Virus record (IMG/VR): IMGVR_UViG_3300031269_000004
Source of the DNA: an uncultured virus (IMG/VR IMGVR_UViG_3300031269_000004)
Taxonomy: Duplodnaviria; Heunggongvirae; Uroviricota; Caudoviricetes
Length of the DNA stretch: 64,000 nt
Reading direction: 5' to 3' (one strand)
The translations under genes were made by a program, and so were the position numbers. How positions within the stretch are numbered: the stretch's first letter is position 1; each line of letters opens with the position of its first letter. Shown piece by piece: positions 7,358-63,280 of this stretch. The notes below the pieces were generated by a model. The model ran no database searches. It saw nothing but the letters and a program-made list of their open reading frames with translations, and was not told where the DNA came from.

Positions 7358-7825
7358 ATGAGTAAACAATTATATTACAAAAATACAGAAAGTAGCAATG
7401 AATTATACACGTTGTTATGTGCAGGCTTTCCAGCAGTTGGCAAAAGTTACATTTACAACCATTCTAAACTAAAAGTTTTAGATAGTGATAGTAGTAAGTT
7501 CGATAAAGCCTTTTTTCCTAAAAATTACATAGACCATATTAAGGCAAATTTGGGTAAAGTAGACATTATATTAATAAGTAGCCACGAAGTTGTAAGAGAT
7601 GCACTTGTTAAAGAAAATATGCACTTTACTCTTGTTTACCCAAATATTGACTTGAAGCAAGAATTTATAGAAAGGTATAAACAACGAGGAAGTCCAAAAA
7701 GCTTTATTAAACTGGTGAGTGATAACTGGACTGAATGGATAGAGCAATTGCAAAATCAGAATGGTTGTAAAAAGATTGAATTAAGCACAGGACAATATTT
7801 AAAGGACGTTATAGCTTGCACATAA
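7358..7825 (+). CDS. small P-loop kinase/NTPase-like protein
   Basis: Walker A AGFPAVGKS, DSDSS, RxxxRG lid-like motif. Confidence 0.7.
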   Translation: MSKQLYYKNTESSNELYTLLCAGFPAVGKSYIYNHSKLKVLDSDSSKFDKAFFPKNYIDHIKANLGKVDIILISSHEVVRDALVKENMHFTLVYPNIDLKQEFIERYKQRGSPKSFIKLVSDNWTEWIEQLQNQNGCKKIELSTGQYLKDVIACT

Positions 7826-7945
7826 CGTGTTGTATAAGATTTGAAGCGTATAAATAGAACGTTTGCCTGACGTCGACAACACGATAATATGTAAACAATA
7901 ACTATTTATAAAGCAGTAACACCGCTTTTAATTTTATACGGTGTT
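7403..7945. mobile_element. attC-like cassette with hairpin linker
   Basis: GTTATGTGCAGGCT (7414-7427) inverted to AGCTTGCACATAAC (7813-7826); linker arms 7832-7848/7923-7939. Confidence 0.5.
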
Positions 7946-8003
7946 ATTTTTAGTTTTCTTTTCGAGCGATGGCAAATTGCGTAGCAAAACCTAACTAAAT
8001 GTT

Positions 8004-16412: not shown

Positions 16413-17903
16413 ATGGAAATTTACGAACTACGCGACTTGCGTACAAAGTGTCAAATTGACATAGACCAGATAGATGGTCTTACTACTACTGACCTTGATT
16501 TGTATCTTTATCATTTTCCACTACAAAAAAAGCTGGCATACGCATATCTAAAAGAAGTTAGTACTGTAAAGTTATCAGTTTTGCATGAACTGTTTAGTCA
16601 GTTTGGTGACATTGACTATTTTAGTTCAGCAATACATACCGAAAGACAGATAGACCCTGCCTATGCTAAAGTAACAAAAAAATACGTAAGAAATCCGTGG
16701 ATATGGATTACTGCTATGCAAACAGTCCAGCCTTACCTTTTTGATGCTAAATACTTACTAGTTGGTGAATTTCAAAATGTAGCAAAAAAATGTGTGGATG
16801 ACTTTTATAAAGCTCAACTAATGCACTACACAGTATCATACAATAAGCTAAAAACGATTGATCATATGGAGGGTCATAATCAATGGTTTATTGATAGACG
16901 TGATATTGAAAAGTCATTTTTCAATGACATCTTGAAGCGATTTCATTTTAACCAAAAGCTTAGAGTCAAGTGGTACTACAAGTTTATTGAATTTTACGAT
17001 GAGTCATCAACACTAACATTACAATTTGAAATAGGAAGATACGAAACAAAAATGCGTATTATTTGGCCACCGGGTAACCGTAAGCAAAGCAGAGAAGACA
17101 GTCAATTTCAAGTTATGAAAATGTTGCAACGATATCCTGAGCTGTTTACCTTATACCACAGAATACACAACAACAGAAAAGACGTTGTACAATACTTTAA
17201 TAGTTTAGTTGCAAATGACAACAATAATTACTTAACATATCAAGTCTTAAAGGCTACGATGGTTGCCTTCTTAGAAGACCTACATAGTAACGAACCCGGT
17301 GCATATATTGAAAGTGAAGACATTATTGGTTACTTTGTGCATCATCAATCAGTCGAGAAAATAGCAATTAGACCTCAAGGTGGTCAGCTTAGATTTTATC
17401 GATATTGCAAAATATTAAATGACAAATATGGCAGAAGTGACATCTTGTCATATAGTTCATATAAGCTAAACGAAAAAGAAATAGGGAATCAGGCAACTGA
17501 ACTATTAAGAATGGGTATGGTCAACATTGGTTCAACTAAACATGCACATCAATTGCTAGATTATGAATTATTGGCAACTGAACGTGCTAACGAGTTTGCT
17601 TTGCAATTCTTTAAGTTGCCATCAAGGCAGGCTGGTGAATTTTTTGCAGATTATGAAATGTTGCTTGACTTATTAGATGGCGAAGTTAGATACTTAGCAG
17701 CAGAAGGCGCTAATGCAGAAGACACAAGAGATACCGAACCACCTGTTCAAGATTGGGTTAGTACATATTTTGAATGGCTTGCAAAAGAAAGAGACCCTAA
17801 AGTGTTTGCAGAAGAAAGAGAAATGAGGCTAAACGCAAAAAGAAAAAGAATTCGAGAATTCACAGAAACAAATAAAGCATTATTGCAAAAATTCACAAAA
17901 TGA
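16413..17903 (+). CDS. hypothetical protein
   Basis: 496-aa ORF, no motif recognised. Confidence 0.7.
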   Translation: MEIYELRDLRTKCQIDIDQIDGLTTTDLDLYLYHFPLQKKLAYAYLKEVSTVKLSVLHELFSQFGDIDYFSSAIHTERQIDPAYAKVTKKYVRNPWIWITAMQTVQPYLFDAKYLLVGEFQNVAKKCVDDFYKAQLMHYTVSYNKLKTIDHMEGHNQWFIDRRDIEKSFFNDILKRFHFNQKLRVKWYYKFIEFYDESSTLTLQFEIGRYETKMRIIWPPGNRKQSREDSQFQVMKMLQRYPELFTLYHRIHNNRKDVVQYFNSLVANDNNNYLTYQVLKATMVAFLEDLHSNEPGAYIESEDIIGYFVHHQSVEKIAIRPQGGQLRFYRYCKILNDKYGRSDILSYSSYKLNEKEIGNQATELLRMGMVNIGSTKHAHQLLDYELLATERANEFALQFFKLPSRQAGEFFADYEMLLDLLDGEVRYLAAEGANAEDTRDTEPPVQDWVSTYFEWLAKERDPKVFAEEREMRLNAKRKRIREFTETNKALLQKFTK

Positions 17904-19063
17904 AAAAAATTAAAAGAGTAAGTTCACTGGTCGGTAATGGCTACGACACTATTATTATTGGTGCTGGCTTAGCAGGCGCAACTTGTGCACATCTTGATGC
18001 AATGAAAGGCAAACGTGTCCTACTTGTTGATAGAAGATCACACATTGCCGGCAACATTTATACTAAAAAGCAGGACGATATACACGTTCATAAATATGGT
18101 GCTCATTTGTTCCACACTAACGAACTGACTGTTTGGGAATTCCTAAATCAATTTTGTACATTTAGCGGTTACGAACACAAAGTTATGGCTGCAACAGGCA
18201 AAGAAACGGTAGTTTTACCTTTTACTATGGTCACTTTTATGCAATTGTTTAATGTACAAACAGTCATTGCAGTTAAGGCTAAAATATTGGAGGAAACAAC
18301 TGCATACTTCCCTGATGGCATACCGGAAAACCCAGCAAACTTTGAGTTGCAGGCTATTGCAATTGTAGGTACAACAGTCTACGAAAAGTTGATTAAACAC
18401 TACACAGAAAAGCAATGGGGTTGCAAAGCAACAGACTTGCCGCCTGAAATCATAAAGCGTTTACCTCTTCGTTGGAATTGTGACACTACATATTTTAATA
18501 ACGCAAAGTGGCAAGGTATACCACTACAAGGTTACACGGAAATGGTTGACAATATGCTTATGTCAAATAACATAGATGTCCTATTAGATTGTGACTTTTT
18601 AAAAAACAAAGATGAAATTTTAACATGTGGACTACCTGACTATAGCTTTATTTATACTGGAGCAATTGATGAATTGTTTGACTATGAATTTGGACACTTA
18701 GAGTATAGAACAGTTCGTTTTGTTGATAAGCTTTTACCTATTGATAACTTTCAAGGTACTTCTGTTGTAAACTTTACTGGACCAGAAAAGCCTTACACTA
18801 GGACTATTGAACATAAACATTTTGACCCTAACTGTACTGCTAAAAACACTATTGTTTCTACTGAATATGCAGAAGACTTTGTGCCAGGCAAAAATGAACC
18901 ATATTACCCAATAGGTCGACAAAGAAACAAAGAGCTATGGAAAAAATACGAAACATTGTTTAATTCAAAATACCAAAAAGGCATACTATTAGGAAGACTT
19001 GCTACATATCAATACTTAGATATGGATAAAGTGGTTAAGCAGGCATTGGACTTAAGGTCATAA
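17900..19063 (+). CDS. glf: UDP-galactopyranose mutase
   Basis: GAGLAG FAD motif, HKYGAHLFHT, YTEKQWG, EPYYP, GRLATYQYLDMD. Confidence 0.92.
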   Translation: MKKIKRVSSLVGNGYDTIIIGAGLAGATCAHLDAMKGKRVLLVDRRSHIAGNIYTKKQDDIHVHKYGAHLFHTNELTVWEFLNQFCTFSGYEHKVMAATGKETVVLPFTMVTFMQLFNVQTVIAVKAKILEETTAYFPDGIPENPANFELQAIAIVGTTVYEKLIKHYTEKQWGCKATDLPPEIIKRLPLRWNCDTTYFNNAKWQGIPLQGYTEMVDNMLMSNNIDVLLDCDFLKNKDEILTCGLPDYSFIYTGAIDELFDYEFGHLEYRTVRFVDKLLPIDNFQGTSVVNFTGPEKPYTRTIEHKHFDPNCTAKNTIVSTEYAEDFVPGKNEPYYPIGRQRNKELWKKYETLFNSKYQKGILLGRLATYQYLDMDKVVKQALDLRS

Positions 19064-29751: not shown

Positions 29752-29977
29752 TCTAAAACACTATATAGTACTTGCATTGTTATATTGCGTAATGCCTGTT
29801 GCATCAATAACAGCATCTGCAATGAACGAAGACACTGTTCCAGTGGTTATCAACAATGACATCATCGAAGTTGACAATATGAGTAATTATCGCATTGAAC
29901 AAAAACGGGCATACGGGGAAACGTTTTTTGTATTGGTTGACGGCAGTGGCAAACCTATCCAGTTCATACAGCGATAA
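29744..29977 (+). CDS. small protein with signal-like N-terminus
   Basis: Hydrophobic N-terminus. Confidence 0.55.
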   Translation: MINLKHYIVLALLYCVMPVASITASAMNEDTVPVVINNDIIEVDNMSNYRIEQKRAYGETFFVLVDGSGKPIQFIQR

Positions 29978-30426
29978 TGACAGAACAGCAAGATATAATA
30001 AGTTCTATTGGTCTTTTTCCTTTCTATGCTGCGTTCTTTTGTACTGACGGCATATGGGAAAGACTAACTGACAAAGTCAAACTAGGTCATGCATTCATGA
30101 TAATGCAACTATTGGCAATAAAGTACCCTGAATACGTGCAGGTACTTAACAGGAGTCACAATGTTCATGTTATTGATGCTTTACATAATGCATTCAAGCA
30201 TAACGGTAGGCAACCAGGCTGGTCGTATACTAAAGTAGTACACAATAAGACAGCTACGGAAACTGGTAAATATCCAAAATGGCTAATAGATCAATTTATG
30301 AAAAGCAACGGTTTAGAACAAAAAAGCTTTGATTTTTTGGTGCAAATAGAACCAGAACTGATTATACCATTACTAGATGAAGAGATGGTTAAGATTAACA
30401 TGGCAGTTAAACCTAAAAAGAAATAG
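29977..30426 (+). CDS. possible clamp loader small subunit (gp62-like)
   Basis: Size and FMIMQLLAIKYP...LN resemblance; tentative. Confidence 0.35.
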   Translation: MTEQQDIISSIGLFPFYAAFFCTDGIWERLTDKVKLGHAFMIMQLLAIKYPEYVQVLNRSHNVHVIDALHNAFKHNGRQPGWSYTKVVHNKTATETGKYPKWLIDQFMKSNGLEQKSFDFLVQIEPELIIPLLDEEMVKINMAVKPKKK

Positions 30427-30710
30427 GAAAAAAGCGTTAAGCCTATGACGTAGTGGTTATTCAAGGAACAGAAACAGGAAAGGTAATTACTTTCAGGACG
30501 TACAGAAACGTTTAATGACTAAATAAAAATATATTGCCCGTACAAGTTGATGTTAAAGGGTTCATCGAAACTTATTTGGTTCAGTATATTGGCTACACTC
30601 AACAGGCTGTAAAATGGGTGTAGCTTTTTTTTAATAACAAGCCCTAAAAGCAACAATAACATTAACAAACAACTCATTAATTATATACGTTGCTGTACAC
30701 TTTAAAAATT

Positions 30711-30854
30711 ATGATGCACTCAGATAAAATAGGTAACGAAGTATATGTTTATAGAAATGGCATATTGATTTACAAAAAATGGCTTAAAGAAAATAATTCC
30801 GTAATATTTAACAACCCTCCAAATTGGAAAAATGACCAAACGATAACTATTTAA
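30711..30854 (+). CDS. 47-aa cassette protein (absent from ORF track)
   Basis: MMHSDKIGNEVYVYRNGILIYKKWLK...ITI filling one cassette. Confidence 0.6.
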   Translation: MMHSDKIGNEVYVYRNGILIYKKWLKENNSVIFNNPPNWKNDQTITI

Positions 30855-30920
30855 TAATTTTTTATTGCCTACAACGCATTGGGTATGGTTAGTGCGGAAT
30901 TAATAACTAAAATTTTAAAT

Positions 30921-31199
30921 ATGAACGTAATTGAAAAAACAAGAAATGAGATAAAGGCTTATGTAAGGTCTTTAAATACTCCTGAAAACACAGTCTATCA
31001 AGAAAACGAATTACTTATTCTTTCTTGTTTTTCTAAAGCACAGGAAATTTTTGAGAAAAACGAAAAGTTAGCATTAACTATACCCGTTGTCGTAGGGCAC
31101 AGCGAACAGTTACCTAAGAGTTTAAGTAATAAGGCTTATAAGTGTGCTAATAAAATGACCTACGAAGGATTTGTTGAATGGTGGGATTTGCACTCTTAG
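30921..31199 (+). CDS. hypothetical protein spanning a cassette junction
   Basis: MNVIEKTRNE...LALTIPVVVGHSEQL... Confidence 0.6.
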   Translation: MNVIEKTRNEIKAYVRSLNTPENTVYQENELLILSCFSKAQEIFEKNEKLALTIPVVVGHSEQLPKSLSNKAYKCANKMTYEGFVEWWDLHS

Positions 31200-31309
31200 T
31201 TAATTGCCTACAACGAATTGCATAAGGTTAAGCGATAGCGACCCGCAGGGTTAACTTTATACGGTGTTATTATTAGTGCGGGTTAATTAACTATAAATTT
31301 ATAAATAAG

Positions 31310-31492
31310 ATGAAGATAAGAAAGCCACAAGCAATTAAACCCCTAATAGGATTAATACCTAAATCGATTAGACAAAGAGAAAGACTTAATGAGATAAGAG
31401 AAGCGATAGTAAGATACTATGATGCTGAAATGGAAATACCAATTAAATGGGTTGAAGAATACAATGAACTTATTAAATTAACGAAAGTCTAG
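31310..31492 (+). CDS. small cassette protein
   Basis: GLIPK...RLNEIREAIVRY...IPIKWVEEYNEL. Confidence 0.65.
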   Translation: MKIRKPQAIKPLIGLIPKSIRQRERLNEIREAIVRYYDAEMEIPIKWVEEYNELIKLTKV

Positions 31493-31647
31493 CATTAATT
31501 ATAACGAAATGTATAAGGTTGAGCCATAGCAAAAAGTCAAACTGTTGCACATATTGCAAAAAATGCAAACATTTGTACAGTTTGTTGCTAATTATGTAAA
31601 GAATTGCGTCTTGTAATACATAATATGTAAATACAAACATACATTAA

Positions 31648-32937
31648 ATGCAAGATAAGCGCACTAAAGACAATCTACTTATTAATTTTTTTAACACTAA
31701 CCCACAAAGCATAAAAGAGTCTAGAAGTTCAATTGCCCGGACACTAGGAATAAACAGAGGCACAGTTGCGAATTTTATAGAACGATCATTTAGCGAAGAG
31801 CAAATAGAGGCAATGTTGCGCGGTACACCGCCAAATTTAATCATAAAACCAAAAAGTACAACGACAACTAGCGAATACAGTGATTTAGATAAACTCGACG
31901 ATCCAAAAACATTCGATGAGTATTGTGAATTTTATCACATACCAACAAATAGTATAACAAGCGCTAAATTTGTAAATCATCACGGGCAAGAAGCATGGAA
32001 CGTTGTATGTGACTTTACTCAAATCACCGAATTAGAATTAGATGAATACTTTGAAAGACTAAAAACAAGTCTTGCTGTACAAATTCCAGCAGTTACTATA
32101 CCGGAAATCGATAGGTCAGAAGACCTCATTGGTTATCATATGTATTACGCAGACAAGCACGTTGGTGCCAAAACGAGAGACAACAGCATATATAAAAACG
32201 ACTGGGATGCCAACAAGCTACGTTCTAGACTAATGAAATCATTAGAAGACTTAAAGCATACAGTTGCATATTTTGGCACGCTCGACAAAATACTTATATG
32301 TGACCTTGGTGATCCTGTTGATGGTTGGGACGGTAAAACAACAAGAAAAAGTGCACATTCACTACCACAAAACATGGATAACAGGGAAACCTTTGACAAC
32401 TATGTTGTAACAATGATTGAATGGTTTGACACAATAATCGCACTTGGCTATACAGATGAGTATGAATTCATATGTACTTCAAACGACAATCATGGTGGTG
32501 CATTTAGTTATATTGTCAACAGAACAGTTGAAATTTGGCTCAACACTAAATACCCACAAATTAAGACAACTATCAGTACTAAATTTGTAGAGCCTTACAT
32601 TTATGGTGTACATGCATTCCTATTAACTCACGGTAAAGACGAGGAAGATATGAAATCAGGCCTGCCACTAAATTTAGACCAAAAAACAGAATCATGGTTT
32701 GATGACTACTTAATTAATAACAAACTACTAGAGTACGAATGTCATGTTATCAAAGGTGACCTACATCAAGAGGCACTTAACTACGGTAAACGTTTTCGTT
32801 ACAGAAATGTACTTAGTCTTTATGGTTCTTCTGCTTGGATGATGACAAACTTTGGTTCAGGACAAGCAGGTCTTAGTAATGAACTTGTATGGAAAAATCG
32901 TGCTAAGGTTATGCCTAGCCTAGTTAAATTAAATTAG
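31648..32937 (+). CDS. calcineurin-like metallophosphoesterase with N-terminal HTH
   Basis: IARTLGINRGTV; DKHVG, GDPVDG, NDNH, THG, GDLH. Confidence 0.7.
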   Translation: MQDKRTKDNLLINFFNTNPQSIKESRSSIARTLGINRGTVANFIERSFSEEQIEAMLRGTPPNLIIKPKSTTTTSEYSDLDKLDDPKTFDEYCEFYHIPTNSITSAKFVNHHGQEAWNVVCDFTQITELELDEYFERLKTSLAVQIPAVTIPEIDRSEDLIGYHMYYADKHVGAKTRDNSIYKNDWDANKLRSRLMKSLEDLKHTVAYFGTLDKILICDLGDPVDGWDGKTTRKSAHSLPQNMDNRETFDNYVVTMIEWFDTIIALGYTDEYEFICTSNDNHGGAFSYIVNRTVEIWLNTKYPQIKTTISTKFVEPYIYGVHAFLLTHGKDEEDMKSGLPLNLDQKTESWFDDYLINNKLLEYECHVIKGDLHQEALNYGKRFRYRNVLSLYGSSAWMMTNFGSGQAGLSNELVWKNRAKVMPSLVKLN

Positions 32938-52768: not shown

Positions 52769-54394
52769 ATGACGACTGAGGGATTCTTAAATGAGGCTAA
52801 TAAAAAATGGATAGCTAAAGGTTATGAATATGACATGTCTAATTGGGTTAATTTAGACACTAAACTTAACATTAAATGTACGTTGCATGGCACAGAATTT
52901 CAACAAAAAGCATGGCAGCACTTAAAAAGGTCTGCTTGTAGAGGTTGCAGCCGTATGAAATGGACGACCGAACAGGTTGTTATACATTTTATCGAAACTC
53001 ATGGCTCACTATATGATTACAGCAAAGTGTTGTATCGTTCTGCTACAGATAAAGTTACTATAGTTTGCAATATTCATGGTGAATTTCAGCAAACCCACAA
53101 GAGACACAAAGAAGGCCAAGCATGTCCAATGTGCTCAGGTAGAGCTAAAAAGACTAGTCATATAGTACAGGAATTCATTAACGTGCATGGCAAAGGAAAG
53201 TTTGATTGGTCTGAAGTTAAGTATAAAGGACCTTTAGTGCCAGTTACTGTTATATGCAATGAACACGGGCCATTTTCAATAACACCAAGAACACACATAA
53301 CAGGGAAAAAACATTGCCCTAGCTGCTACAATAATCCACTTTTGGTAGAATTAGCAAGCACGCTAGAGTCTAGATGCAAACATGTACACGGAGAAAAGTA
53401 TGAATACGAAGATGCTGTTTACTTAGCAAGGTCGTCAAAAATAGTAATTGCTTGCCCTAAACATGGCAACTTTAGACAAAGAGTAGACAACCATCTTAGT
53501 GGCAAAGGTTGCCCAAAATGTGCTGCTACTTGTTCAAAACAAGAGCAAGAAGTCAGAGATTTTATTCATTCATTAGGTTTACGTTTTAAGGTAAACTGTA
53601 GACAAACAATAAGCCCTAAAGAAATAGACATTGTCATAGAAAGCCATAAACTTGCAATTGAATATAATGGTCTATATTGGCATAGCAAAAAAGGCAAAAA
53701 TTATCACGCTAATAAAACAGAAAGCTGTAAACTGGCTGGTTTTAGACTTATTCATATTTTTGAAGATGAATGGCTAGAAAAAAGGCAAATTGTTGAATCT
53801 AGAATACGTAATATTTTAGGTCTTAGCAAAAACAAAATAGGTGCTAGGCAGTGTACAATTAAACAAATAGGTGCTAAAGAATGTAATGTGTTTTTAGTCG
53901 ACAATCACATACAGGGTAGTGTAGGCTCTAAACATAGGCTTGGTCTTTTTTATAAAGAAACATTGGTTAGTGTTATGTCGTTTGGCAATCACCGATCTGT
54001 ATTAGGATCAAAGTCAAAAATTGGACAATATGAATTACTAAGGTTTGCAGTTCTTAAACATAGCATTGTGCATGGGGCAGCCAGTCGAATGTTTGCTCAT
54101 TTTTGTCAGGACAAAAGACCAGAACAAATTATTAGCTATGCAGACAAAAGATGGTCTATTGGTTCTTTATACGAAACTCTAGGTTTTACTTGGCAGCACG
54201 ATAGTAAACCTAATTATTTTTATGTTATTGGTCAACAAAGAAAACATAGGGCTCAATTCATGAAGCATAAATTAGTAAAAAGTGGTGCAGACCCAAACAT
54301 GACAGAAAAAGAAATAATGTTAAAGAAAGGCATAGATCGAGTGTATGATAGTGGACATAGCGTTTGGGTTAAGCAGTTTAGCAGCGTTGTCTAA
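52769..54394 (+). CDS. putative homing endonuclease (C..HG.F zinc-ribbon repeats + PD-(D/E)xK/Vsr-like nuclease)
   Basis: Four C..HG.F...H...C..C repeats; EIDI...LAIEYNGLYWH; IHIFEDEW; ISYADKRWS. Confidence 0.75.
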   Translation: MTTEGFLNEANKKWIAKGYEYDMSNWVNLDTKLNIKCTLHGTEFQQKAWQHLKRSACRGCSRMKWTTEQVVIHFIETHGSLYDYSKVLYRSATDKVTIVCNIHGEFQQTHKRHKEGQACPMCSGRAKKTSHIVQEFINVHGKGKFDWSEVKYKGPLVPVTVICNEHGPFSITPRTHITGKKHCPSCYNNPLLVELASTLESRCKHVHGEKYEYEDAVYLARSSKIVIACPKHGNFRQRVDNHLSGKGCPKCAATCSKQEQEVRDFIHSLGLRFKVNCRQTISPKEIDIVIESHKLAIEYNGLYWHSKKGKNYHANKTESCKLAGFRLIHIFEDEWLEKRQIVESRIRNILGLSKNKIGARQCTIKQIGAKECNVFLVDNHIQGSVGSKHRLGLFYKETLVSVMSFGNHRSVLGSKSKIGQYELLRFAVLKHSIVHGAASRMFAHFCQDKRPEQIISYADKRWSIGSLYETLGFTWQHDSKPNYFYVIGQQRKHRAQFMKHKLVKSGADPNMTEKEIMLKKGIDRVYDSGHSVWVKQFSSVV

Positions 54395-58109: not shown

Positions 58110-58613
58110 ATGCCTAACAAAATCAAAAACCTCAAGCCGCAAATGGGTAAGAAGTCGAGATTTAAGCAAGGCTATTTTGATGTTACAAAGTCACTTAAGT
58201 ATCAAAATCCAACAGAACCCTGCATATATCGAAGCTCATACGAGTTTAAGTTTATGCACTGGTGTGAAGTGTCTGACATTGTAGCTAGATGGTCATCAGA
58301 ACCATTTAGCATTAAGTATCTTTGTCTAAATACAGGAAAGCAGCGCAATTATTACATTGATTTTACTGTCACGACAACTAAGCCAGAAGTTTGGCTAATT
58401 GAAGTTAAACCTGTACACGAAGTGACAGAGGCTGAACGTTTTGGTAACAAATGGCAAAGGTTACAAAACCTAAAAGAAAAAAGACGTTTTGCTGATGCCA
58501 ATAAACGAGCGGCTAAAAATTGGTCAAAGTGGCAGCATGCGCAAAAAGTTTGTAATGATAGAGGGTGGCGATTTATTATTGTAACAGAAAAGTTTTTAAA
58601 CAAACCAAAGTAG
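58110..58613 (+). CDS. head completion nuclease (T4 gp4-like, TnsA-type)
   Basis: FKQGYF, KY, YRSSYE..FM.WC, WSSEP, YYIDF, IEVKP, F.IVTEK. Confidence 0.88.
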   Translation: MPNKIKNLKPQMGKKSRFKQGYFDVTKSLKYQNPTEPCIYRSSYEFKFMHWCEVSDIVARWSSEPFSIKYLCLNTGKQRNYYIDFTVTTTKPEVWLIEVKPVHEVTEAERFGNKWQRLQNLKEKRRFADANKRAAKNWSKWQHAQKVCNDRGWRFIIVTEKFLNKPK

Positions 58614-62861: not shown

Positions 62862-62894
62862 TTTTTACCGCATTGGTAAATACAAAATTGCATA

Positions 62895-63280
62895 GCTGTT
62901 AGGCTTTCAATGGTTCATTAAGACGAGAGTTCGAATCTCTCCGAGTCCACTAAGAATAACATTTTAATATGGGCTCGACTGGCATTGATTAGTGAGTATG
63001 ATTTGATAGTTAGGATATGTGATACTTTAACGGACAACGTTAGACAATTAAACCCTAATCATGTTGCTCTAAGAGCAGCTGCATAAGGTAAGACATCGGA
63101 GGGCATCTTCAAATAGCCCTCCCCCTTTAGGGGGTTAAAAAATAAAAAGACTTGTGTTAGTGAGGGTGTAAGTCCTTTCAAGATATCCACTAACTGGCTT
63201 TAAACCTACTCTTAAAGTGCCACCTATGTTTTAGTAGGCTAAGGAGGCCGAGTCTTTTACACCATTGAAAGTAACACAGT
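62895..63280 (+). ncRNA. ssrA: circularly permuted (two-piece) tmRNA
   Basis: T-arm + CGAGTCC-A (62925-62949) lies upstream of GGGCTCG (62971); G3-U70 pair; tag frame 63033-63086 ending AAA-stop; outer ends approximate. Confidence 0.85.

Follow-up and report, generated by a model that had tools for sequence, protein, structure and literature searches.

A putative, partly eroded array of attC-like small-gene cassettes in a T4-type phage, and a related family of structured sites in marine Flavobacteriaceae

The stretch of DNA analysed here, 64,000 nucleotides (nt) of IMG/VR virus record IMGVR_UViG_3300031269_000004 (the window), carries between 30675 and about 31640 three small open reading frames (ORFs) set between related junctions that resemble the attC sites of integrons. 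The window belongs to a T4-type phage: Pfam models identify a gp20 portal protein, a gp23 capsid protein, a prohead protease and a gp14-like neck protein, with further matches to a clamp loader, RNase H and ThyX, and the + strand carries nearly all of the genes. The portal protein is 50% identical to those of the Tenacibaculum phages PTm1 and PTm5, myoviruses of 225 kb in the genus Shirahamavirus. The window phage is a Shirahamavirus-like (T4-type, jumbo) phage of marine Flavobacteriaceae, and the array sits in a hyperplastic spot of its genome. On one side lies a gene for 149 amino acids (aa) that is conserved in PTm1, and on the other a 429-aa gene that is absent from PTm1; because the corresponding spot in PTm1 holds one 86-aa ORF and different genes, the region is variable. 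A second IMG/VR record, G001, which is 43.8 kb long and has an estimated completeness of 19%, matches the window at 100% identity across 29900-32100, and a megablast search of 50,697 phage records returned no close relative.

All parts of the array lie on the + strand. Just 5' of ORF1, at 30675-30700, is a bare junction in which a B'-type cassette end (...TATAC) meets an A'-type start without a hairpin, a layout shared with 31071-31099; its first part, 30675-30688, pairs with 30881-30894 (9 Watson-Crick and 4 G.T pairs in 14). ORF1 (30711-30854) encodes 47 aa from ATG, or 54 aa from a TTG at 30690, and belongs to no known family. The junction that follows, 30866-30897, also has no hairpin: an R''-like box, ...CTACAAC, and a spacer, GCATT, lead at once into a B-type cassette start. 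ORF2 (30921-31199, 92 aa) spans a second bare junction (31071-31099) made of a B'-type end, GTT and an A'-type start, and because it reads through that junction its sequence is probably a fusion of two former cassettes. The intact, compact site occupies 31204-31281 and consists of an R'' box (CTACAAC), a 5-nt spacer, a 12-bp helix with a G.T pair, an 18-nt loop, the spacer GGT and an R' box (GTTATTA...) that runs into the B-type start of the ORF3 cassette. ORF3 (31310-31492, 60 aa) has one 70%-identical homologue in IMG/VR, which has no flanking sites, and the ends of its cassette, 31266-31279 and 31492-31505, are complementary to each other. A decayed site extends from 31492 to approximately 31640, with a B'-type end (...TATAAC), a 4-nt spacer and an intact 5' arm; its 3' arm, judged by eye, has been eroded and runs up against the beginning of the 429-aa gene. 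The span thus holds one intact site, one decayed site, one hairpin-less junction and two bare junctions, not three equal attC sites, and the junctions without a helix retain the logic of the boxes. A full-length copy of 130 nt lies apart from the array at 7820-7949 (+), 3' of the stop codon of a 155-aa gene. Inside it survives part of the beginning of a 71-aa ORF, which other IMG/VR contigs have in intact form.

Direct repeats relate the junctions to one another: 31 nt at 84% identity between 30861 and 31200 and again between 31209 and 31500, 39 nt at 74% between 30884 and 31268, and 37 nt at 73% between 31046 and 31467. A first-pass annotation had proposed a tandem array of three attC-like units, the start of each being complementary to its own end, and a recount of the arms bears out the complementarity. 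The arms 31266-31279 and 31492-31505 pair at 13 of 14 positions (12 Watson-Crick, 1 G.T), and 31089-31099 pairs with 31204-31214 at 8 of 11 ungapped positions, or more if a one-base bulge is allowed; the match of 30692-30711 to 30856-30875 is loose (13 of 20), as had been said. Of the two linkers proposed, 31220-31231 and 31251-31262 do form an inner helix (10 Watson-Crick and 1 G.T in 12), whereas 30881-30895 and 31071-31085 (13 Watson-Crick and 2 G.T in 15) are the two ends of a cassette. The likeness in geometry that had been seen at 7813-7945 is real, with an exact 16-mer common to 7933 and 31256 and the full-length copy at 7820-7949. When 14-mers with at least 13 pairs, G.T allowed, are counted at spacings of 20-300 nt, the + strand of 30650-31560 holds 33 complementary pairs, a number reached in none of 200 dinucleotide shuffles (mean 7.1, sd 5.3, maximum 32); the reverse strand holds 21.

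Read on one strand, the sites of the family have the form nnnnAAC, 5-6 unpaired nt, a helix of 12-16 bp in which two G.T wobbles are conserved, a loop that ranges from 6 to about 100 nt, 3 unpaired nt and GTTnnnn. Coordinates were chosen with ad hoc hairpin detectors, which are noisy in AT-rich DNA and served no other purpose. In an alignment of 15 compact copies (A1), 88.4% of cells are paired, 10 of 19 pairs have changed on both sides, and the covariation of 0.314, against 0.145 in shuffles, is reached by none of 500 shuffles and falls away once the partners are shifted against each other. Copies of full length (about 130 nt), ten viral and five from hosts (A3), share a 16-bp helix and are 89.3% paired overall, with double changes in 13 of 23 pairs and again 0 of 500 shuffles reaching the observed value. 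The inner helix is paired in 97.3% of cells in A1 and 95.4% in A3, with changes on both sides in 6 of 10 and 9 of 16 pairs. The AAC/GTT pairs are invariant in all 15 compact copies and in 14-15 of the 15 full-length ones, and the positions outside them vary, with some compensatory changes. Mismatches that had been described as mostly G-T on one strand prove to be so throughout the family: the ratio of G.T to A.C in the inner helix is 35:1 in A1 and 31:0 in A3, most such cells coming from two conserved positions, and by this asymmetry one strand is identified as the folding strand. The two wobbles are present in 14 and 15 of the 15 copies in A1 and in 13 and 14 of the 15 in A3, in phage-type copies that have no bulge; the commonest host type has a 2-against-1 bulge, seen by eye only in an alignment of 15 host elements (A2).

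Other causes of this conservation were considered and rejected. In copies of the type found in locus L008 the 3' arm encodes ...TLYGVI... of the 71-aa ORF, and coding does not explain the conservation of the arm because compact copies without an ORF and host copies keep the same arm. A group I intron was suggested by a hairpin that resembles a T4 intron stem; there are no flanking exons, no room for P1 and no Rfam match. No tRNA-like elements were detected in the window. Across 30400-31800, Rfam gives only a ToxI-like match at 30612-30648 (E 0.5), an ordinary terminator-like hairpin.

A covariance model of the site, R1, was trained on a mixture of viral and bacterial-assembly sequences. It scores 51 bits at 31204-31276 in the window, a training member, and 20.6 bits (E 0.04) on the 7892-7953 part of the copy at 7820-7949. 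It finds no copy at any further gene junction of the 64-kb window. Outside the window R1 matches five times in Polaribacter phage P12002L, twice in Tenacibaculum phage JQ, once in PTm1 and in 44 of 150 Flavobacteriaceae genomes; scans and BLAST likewise place family members in these three phages. The match at P12002L 30001-30063 (KR136259; 30.7 bits, outside the training set) is the published site P12002L_attC1. A 16-mer scan of IMG/VR gave 40 loci, of which about a dozen, by eye, have the whole architecture in unrelated contexts, and the rest look like chance. A pattern also gave 12 matches in assemblies of bacteria (Tenacibaculum, Winogradskyella, Polaribacter, Formosa and further Bacteroidota), of which about 8 were judged real and 4 chance.

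In P12002L and in a prophage-like Winogradskyella locus (L077) the sites flank DNA methyltransferase genes. The P12002L region (L096, KR136259 29500-33000; also L072) carries five genes annotated for DNA methyltransferases or DNA modification, family elements bracket most of them, and at 884-1110 of L072 an expanded element holds an entire 44-aa ORF in its loop. Another viral contig of that series of samples (L040), higher in GC, contains about 800 nt without ORFs (1295-2100), in which one AT-rich full-length element is followed by several GGTTACAAA-like repeats; these could be iterons or arm-type binding sites.

The longest arrays are in host chromosomes. Tenacibaculum genome G003 has, on at least three contigs, long one-strand runs of genes, mostly without a Pfam family, that are spaced by elements of about 131-133 nt and bordered by housekeeping genes. 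These arrays lie on contigs C9 (about 78-97 kb), C3 (about 312-330 kb) and C12 (66-83 kb), were sampled as loci L091-L095, and include at least two element subtypes. No recombinase gene was found in the stretches fetched from the large Tenacibaculum arrays. In all host arrays inspected, from Tenacibaculum G003, Formosa, T. aiptasiae and Winogradskyella, the folding strand with its wobbles is antisense to the cassette ORFs. Because of that orientation the wobble strand in hosts cannot be mRNA, and the arrangement is that of the attC bottom strand.

The host arrays also follow a rule that relates the boxes to the cassettes. In one array (L093), the four variable bases that follow GTT in one site complement those that precede the next AAC at 24 of 32 positions, against 13 of 36 for the two boxes of the same site and 13 of 32 for a reverse control (permutation P = 0.0002). 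In the window the same rule joins 31266-31279 to 31492-31505 (13 of 14), and the boxes of site 31204-31281 do not match each other; in IMG/VR loci L068 and L062, GTTATGC...GCATAAC surrounds the 71-aa ORF. Complementarity of a cassette's start with its own end is the signature expected if, as in integrons, crossovers at AAC/GTT bring together a site body and box halves that come from different cassettes.

Integron integrases were sought with TIGR02249, which was above its cut-off in none of four host genomes. In 301 Flavobacteriaceae genomes no integrase match at E<=1e-40 was found either; no positive control registered in that search, for which reason the enzyme is to be called not found rather than absent. 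Each of the two best TIGR02249-like ORFs in these four genomes is the immediate neighbour of an array that has the sites. In Formosa a 390-aa recombinase ORF is co-directional with, and directly upstream of, a five-element array, and in Winogradskyella a 293-aa recombinase ORF is divergent from a two-element array; the two enzymes are 41% identical. They score 215-223 bits against NF040815 (XerA / integron integrase) and 204-209 bits against TIGR02249 (cut-off 265), the latter in two stretches that skip model positions 180-238, which we take to be the place of the IntI-specific domain. Judged by these model matches, the enzymes at the heads of the arrays are predicted to be Xer/IntI-like recombinases without the insertion that defines integron integrases. 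Formosa sp. A9 has, besides, a second small group of the elements (L085/L086, G002 655-695 kb), in an island that also carries two copies of IS21, a Cas1-like fragment, primase-like and helicase-like genes, and a 466-aa tyrosine recombinase.

Signs of movement were seen in IMG/VR and in contigs assembled from mixed communities in four public salt-lake DNA runs, which attest the presence of a variant and not its frequency; of five runs with most of the stretch, two may be the window's own source. IMG/VR loci L008 (1390-1726) and L033 (1390-1727) share a 338-bp module of site, 71-aa ORF and site at 95% identity and nothing else over 3 kb, and the second site of the module has already diverged. 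In L062 and L066 the similarity ends at ...GCATAAC. In L069 the loop and 3' arm of a site, with the first 20 or so codons of the 71-aa ORF, are fused onto a different ORF, and an identical 47-nt site occurs in unrelated contexts in L012 and L052. In the four runs, the core of the intact site, 31222-31268, assembles as contigs of 39-83 nt at a depth of 130-1100, against 5-20 for the phage (10-100 times), with other flanks; loose ends of contigs at 31222, 31237 and 31268/9 continue into other flanking sequence, in one case a related B-type start. A 6968-nt contig (the X4 variant) matches the window at 97.5% identity, with 22 differences, over 31200-32100 and is unlike it 5' of 31200. Shorter contigs share with the window only 30859-30893 (648 nt, run X4), 31048-31090 and then diverge (151 nt, run X2), or only 31073-31107 (559 nt, run X3). 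Polymorphism at the boundaries, which the first-pass annotation had named as a check, is thus present, the contigs diverging from the window at 31200, 31090, 31222 and 31268/9. Upstream of the array, at 30592-30632 (+), a terminator-like hairpin is followed by a T run; this hairpin on its own is common to short contigs of runs X3 and X4, in differing contexts.

The region is best explained as three small-gene cassettes in a short array, eroded in part, with lineage-specific attC-like sites as their boundaries. We put at roughly 55% the probability that the sites belong to a non-classical integron-like system, of which the window would hold a small, eroding array of cassettes. By analogy with integrons, the folding strand would form its hairpin as single-stranded DNA and a tyrosine recombinase would exchange strands at the AAC/GTT core, such that each cassette would carry two halves of one box, one at either end. 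The enzyme in hosts would most likely be the Xer/IntI-like recombinase that heads the two arrays examined. Because the phage has no recombinase, two routes are proposed for phage cassettes: a host enzyme acting in trans during infection may place or exchange them, or phage homologous recombination may move them afterwards, with the conserved sites as linkers.

A number of observations weigh against this reading. No enzyme was found in the phages: Pfam gives no integrase in the 63 window ORFs scanned, as the first-pass annotation had also observed; PF00589 is found in none of four records (the complete JQ, PTm1 and P12002L genomes and G001); and among 26 viral loci that encode relatives of the host recombinases none has an R1 match. 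A phage-borne recombinase was rejected on these counts, and the co-occurring recombinase that had been sought is present beside two host arrays and in none of the phages examined. Every phage or viral copy seen has its folding strand as the coding strand, the mirror image of the hosts, and phage cassettes are therefore not simply host cassettes carried over. Nor was a host origin of the cassette genes found, ORF3 and the 71-aa ORF each being matchless in 401 Flavobacteriaceae genomes. The units that had been taken as alike are real as repeats and attC-like in anatomy, and they are not equivalent: beside the 51 bits of the intact site, R1 gives 12.6 bits at 30865-30940 and 12.0 bits at 31495-31554 (E 3-4, noise level). 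Since only one site in the span is intact, a gene-capture system in the phage, as first proposed, would amount at most to a relic or to passive participation; the proposal keeps its anatomy, the cassette rule, the host arrays and the P12002L precedent, and is weakened by the missing enzyme, the mirrored orientation and the single intact site. Detection of phage and host copies by one R1 model is not independent, because the training set mixed both, and a sequence-only nhmmer profile of the 15 host elements of A2 misses the window copies. The X4 variant breaks at 31200, a few bases 5' of the AAC box and outside the core, and for that reason fits homologous or illegitimate exchange equally well. 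No close relative with a different cassette order, another check that had been suggested, was found in IMG/VR or in Joint Genome Institute (JGI) metagenomes, where relatives are either identical copies or 42-47% identical in protein (IMG/VR) or 41-46% identical (JGI), with an R1 match in none of nine distant loci. P12002L_attC1, the sole family member with a bench test, was the single site among six for which no attC x attI1 junction with IntI1 was verified (PMC9892861). The test of the cassette rule covers nine consecutive sites of one Tenacibaculum array, with ends chosen by pattern and by eye. The weakest links are activity in phages, given the lack of an enzyme, the mirrored sites and the erosion, then the crossover point, and the narrow base of the cassette rule.

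Some of these points would be expected if the junctions were linkers like the promoter early stem-loops (PeSLs), that is, regulatory or neutral stem-loop modules among which T4-type short-homology recombination shuffles genes without a dedicated recombinase or a defined crossover point. The phage is of T4 type (gp20, gp23, gp21-like protease, gp14, clamp loader; portal 50% identical to PTm1), its region differs from that of PTm1, no recombinase was found in the phages examined, and the X4 variant has its breakpoint (31200) outside the core. Published PeSLs flank ORFans, recombine without a known recombinase and were likened to integrons by their authors, although their stems, with G runs and then C runs, and their sigma-70 promoters are unlike these sites in sequence (PMC2839356, in the parts available). 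We consider this explanation unlikely, as it does not account for a cassette start that complements its own end rather than the other box of its own site, for the presence of the same family at the head of host arrays beside a dedicated recombinase, or for a covarying helix with invariant AAC/GTT.

The orientation in phages would also suit hairpins that act in mRNA, as processing sites of RNase III type (lower stem, internal loop, upper stem), 3' stabilisers or attenuators between small genes, the cassette features being by-products. All phage copies have their wobbles on the sense strand, the AAC box mostly overlaps the upstream stop codon TAA, G.U pairs are conserved, RNA folding of 30840-31560 recovers the long-range helices (z = -2.3), and the geometry is presumably close to that of phage T7 RNase III sites. 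The same strand is antisense to the genes in host arrays, however, no Rfam family is found at 30400-31800 or in five viral loci, most copies have no U-tract 3', 7800-7960 has an unremarkable fold (z = -1.6), and hairpin-less junctions keep the box logic; an RNA element as the whole explanation seems to us quite improbable, though an RNA role could coexist with a DNA role. Least credible, and very improbable in our view, is that the 50-135-nt palindromes are themselves mobile units resembling MITEs (miniature inverted-repeat transposable elements), inserted between host or virus genes with the small ORFs as bystanders. Their own two boxes match worse (13 of 36) than the box of the next site (24 of 32), the opposite of terminal inverted repeats; no target-site duplication was seen; and host copies stand at nearly every gene junction of long one-strand arrays, two of which begin at a recombinase gene, and are not scattered. 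What a MITE would explain is the hairpin core found alone at 10-100 times phage depth with several different flanks, the identical 47-nt copy in unrelated contexts, and the window junctions 30675-30700 and 31071-31099, which resemble empty sites; a published survey moreover reports MITEs that Flavobacteriales genomes have in common with their viruses (PMC11602168). Homology-driven shuffling and an RNA role could both be compatible with the integron-like reading.

That reading, if extended, leads to a proposal we hold only tentatively and think more doubtful: marine Flavobacteriaceae and their phages might share one integron-like cassette economy, run by an Xer-like recombinase without the IntI domain, in which host recombinases, acting in trans on infection, would shuffle the mirror-image cassettes, with genes on the folding strand, of unrelated phages (jumbo T4-type, P12002L-like, JQ-like). 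Small phage genes such as orphan methyltransferases would then circulate through the local phage pool site-specifically and not by homology. As observed, a single structured family links a T4-type jumbo phage, two other phage types, host arrays with and without a recombinase, and a published site negative in an IntI1 assay. If the sites are active, they would offer a testable mechanism for modular exchange of small accessory genes, for example anti-restriction methyltransferases, among unrelated phages of one host group, and would broaden what counts as an integron-like system. Gene capture has its textbook device in integrons, which are barely known in Bacteroidota, and clusters of attC sites lacking integron integrases (CALINs) reported in phages have been read as ordinary attC sites. 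For annotation, the family accounts for a class of intergenic hairpins conserved in flavobacterial phages and in assembled metagenomes, in which contigs break at the repeats.

Elsewhere on the + strand of the window, a permuted transfer-messenger RNA (tmRNA) match to Rfam RF04321 at 62894-63086 (51.1 bits, gathering score 47) would be a candidate phage-borne two-piece tmRNA; ARAGORN reports no tRNA or tmRNA in the window, despite that match. A 541-aa ORF directly 3' of the gp23 gene (52769-54394) combines Vsr/MTES-type endonuclease, zinc-ribbon and Mom-family domains, a composition that suggests a homing-endonuclease-like or DNA-modification fusion within the structural module. A 167-aa ORF (58110-58613) has a TnsA-like endonuclease N-terminal domain (E 1e-14), and 17900-19063 encodes a phage UDP-galactopyranose mutase (GLF domain, E 2e-67).

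The literature search found no description of this family of sites as a class in Flavobacteriaceae; the nearest accounts are PMC9892861, the rAID-1 preprint (10.1101/471110) and PMC11602168. The published accounts compared here were available in part, and what is said of them holds for those parts. PeSLs consist of a stop codon, an AT-rich tract, a sigma-70-like promoter, a stem-loop with G-T pairs, a Shine-Dalgarno sequence and a start codon (PMC2839356), and through them small genes are inserted, deleted and replaced in the hyperplastic regions of T4-type phages, with no recombinase known (PMC2839356; PMC4122927). The window sites are similar in being stem-loops with G-T pairs between ORFans, 3' of a stop codon, in a T4-type variable region. 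A conserved AACTAATTAA-like tract upstream of start codons was recognised by eye only. The sites differ in their AAC/GTT boxes and in the complementarity of cassette ends, neither of which belongs to PeSLs as described in those parts, where host-array counterparts are likewise not described.

The recombinase-associated acquired interbacterial defence system of Bacteroidales (rAID-1; Ross et al., 10.1101/471110) has a XerD-family tyrosine recombinase followed by co-directional arrays of small, low-GC genes with intergenic repeats reminiscent of integrons, and its definition calls for over 44% identity to the B. fragilis recombinase together with immunity-gene content. The Formosa array resembles it in layout. 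Unlike rAID-1, the Winogradskyella recombinase is divergent from its array and the window has no recombinase; the available account of rAID-1 mentions no phage copies.

The closest likeness is to integron attC sites and CALINs. Shared features are the AAC...GTT boxes, the unpaired central spacer and the imperfect helix on one strand; a loop of 6 to about 100 nt in a site of about 50-135 nt; one-strand arrays of mostly ORFan cassettes, the start of each complementing its own end; and, in hosts, a folding strand antisense to the cassette genes. The differences are the absence of an integron integrase, the array-head enzymes being below the TIGR02249 cut-off and without the IntI-specific insertion; the asymmetric spacer of 5-6 and 3 nt; conserved G.T wobbles at the place of the extrahelical bases of attC; and phage sites that are mirrored relative to the genes. 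For Bacteroidetes, the IntegronFinder 2.0 paper (PMC9024848) records a single complete integron, in Salinibacter, and otherwise In0 elements only. Qi et al. 2023 (PMC9892861) reported CALINs from virulent phages, P12002L among them, and list two P12002L sites, handling them as ordinary attC sites tested with IntI1; P12002L_attC1, in supplementary Table S3, was predicted by HattCI alone (Figure 2 legend). The window phage, a jumbo T4-type myovirus, is not among the phages named in the available parts of that paper. Relative to that report, the present analysis places at least five members in P12002L, in a host-lineage-specific family with a mirrored orientation in phages and with host arrays that are accompanied by a different recombinase.

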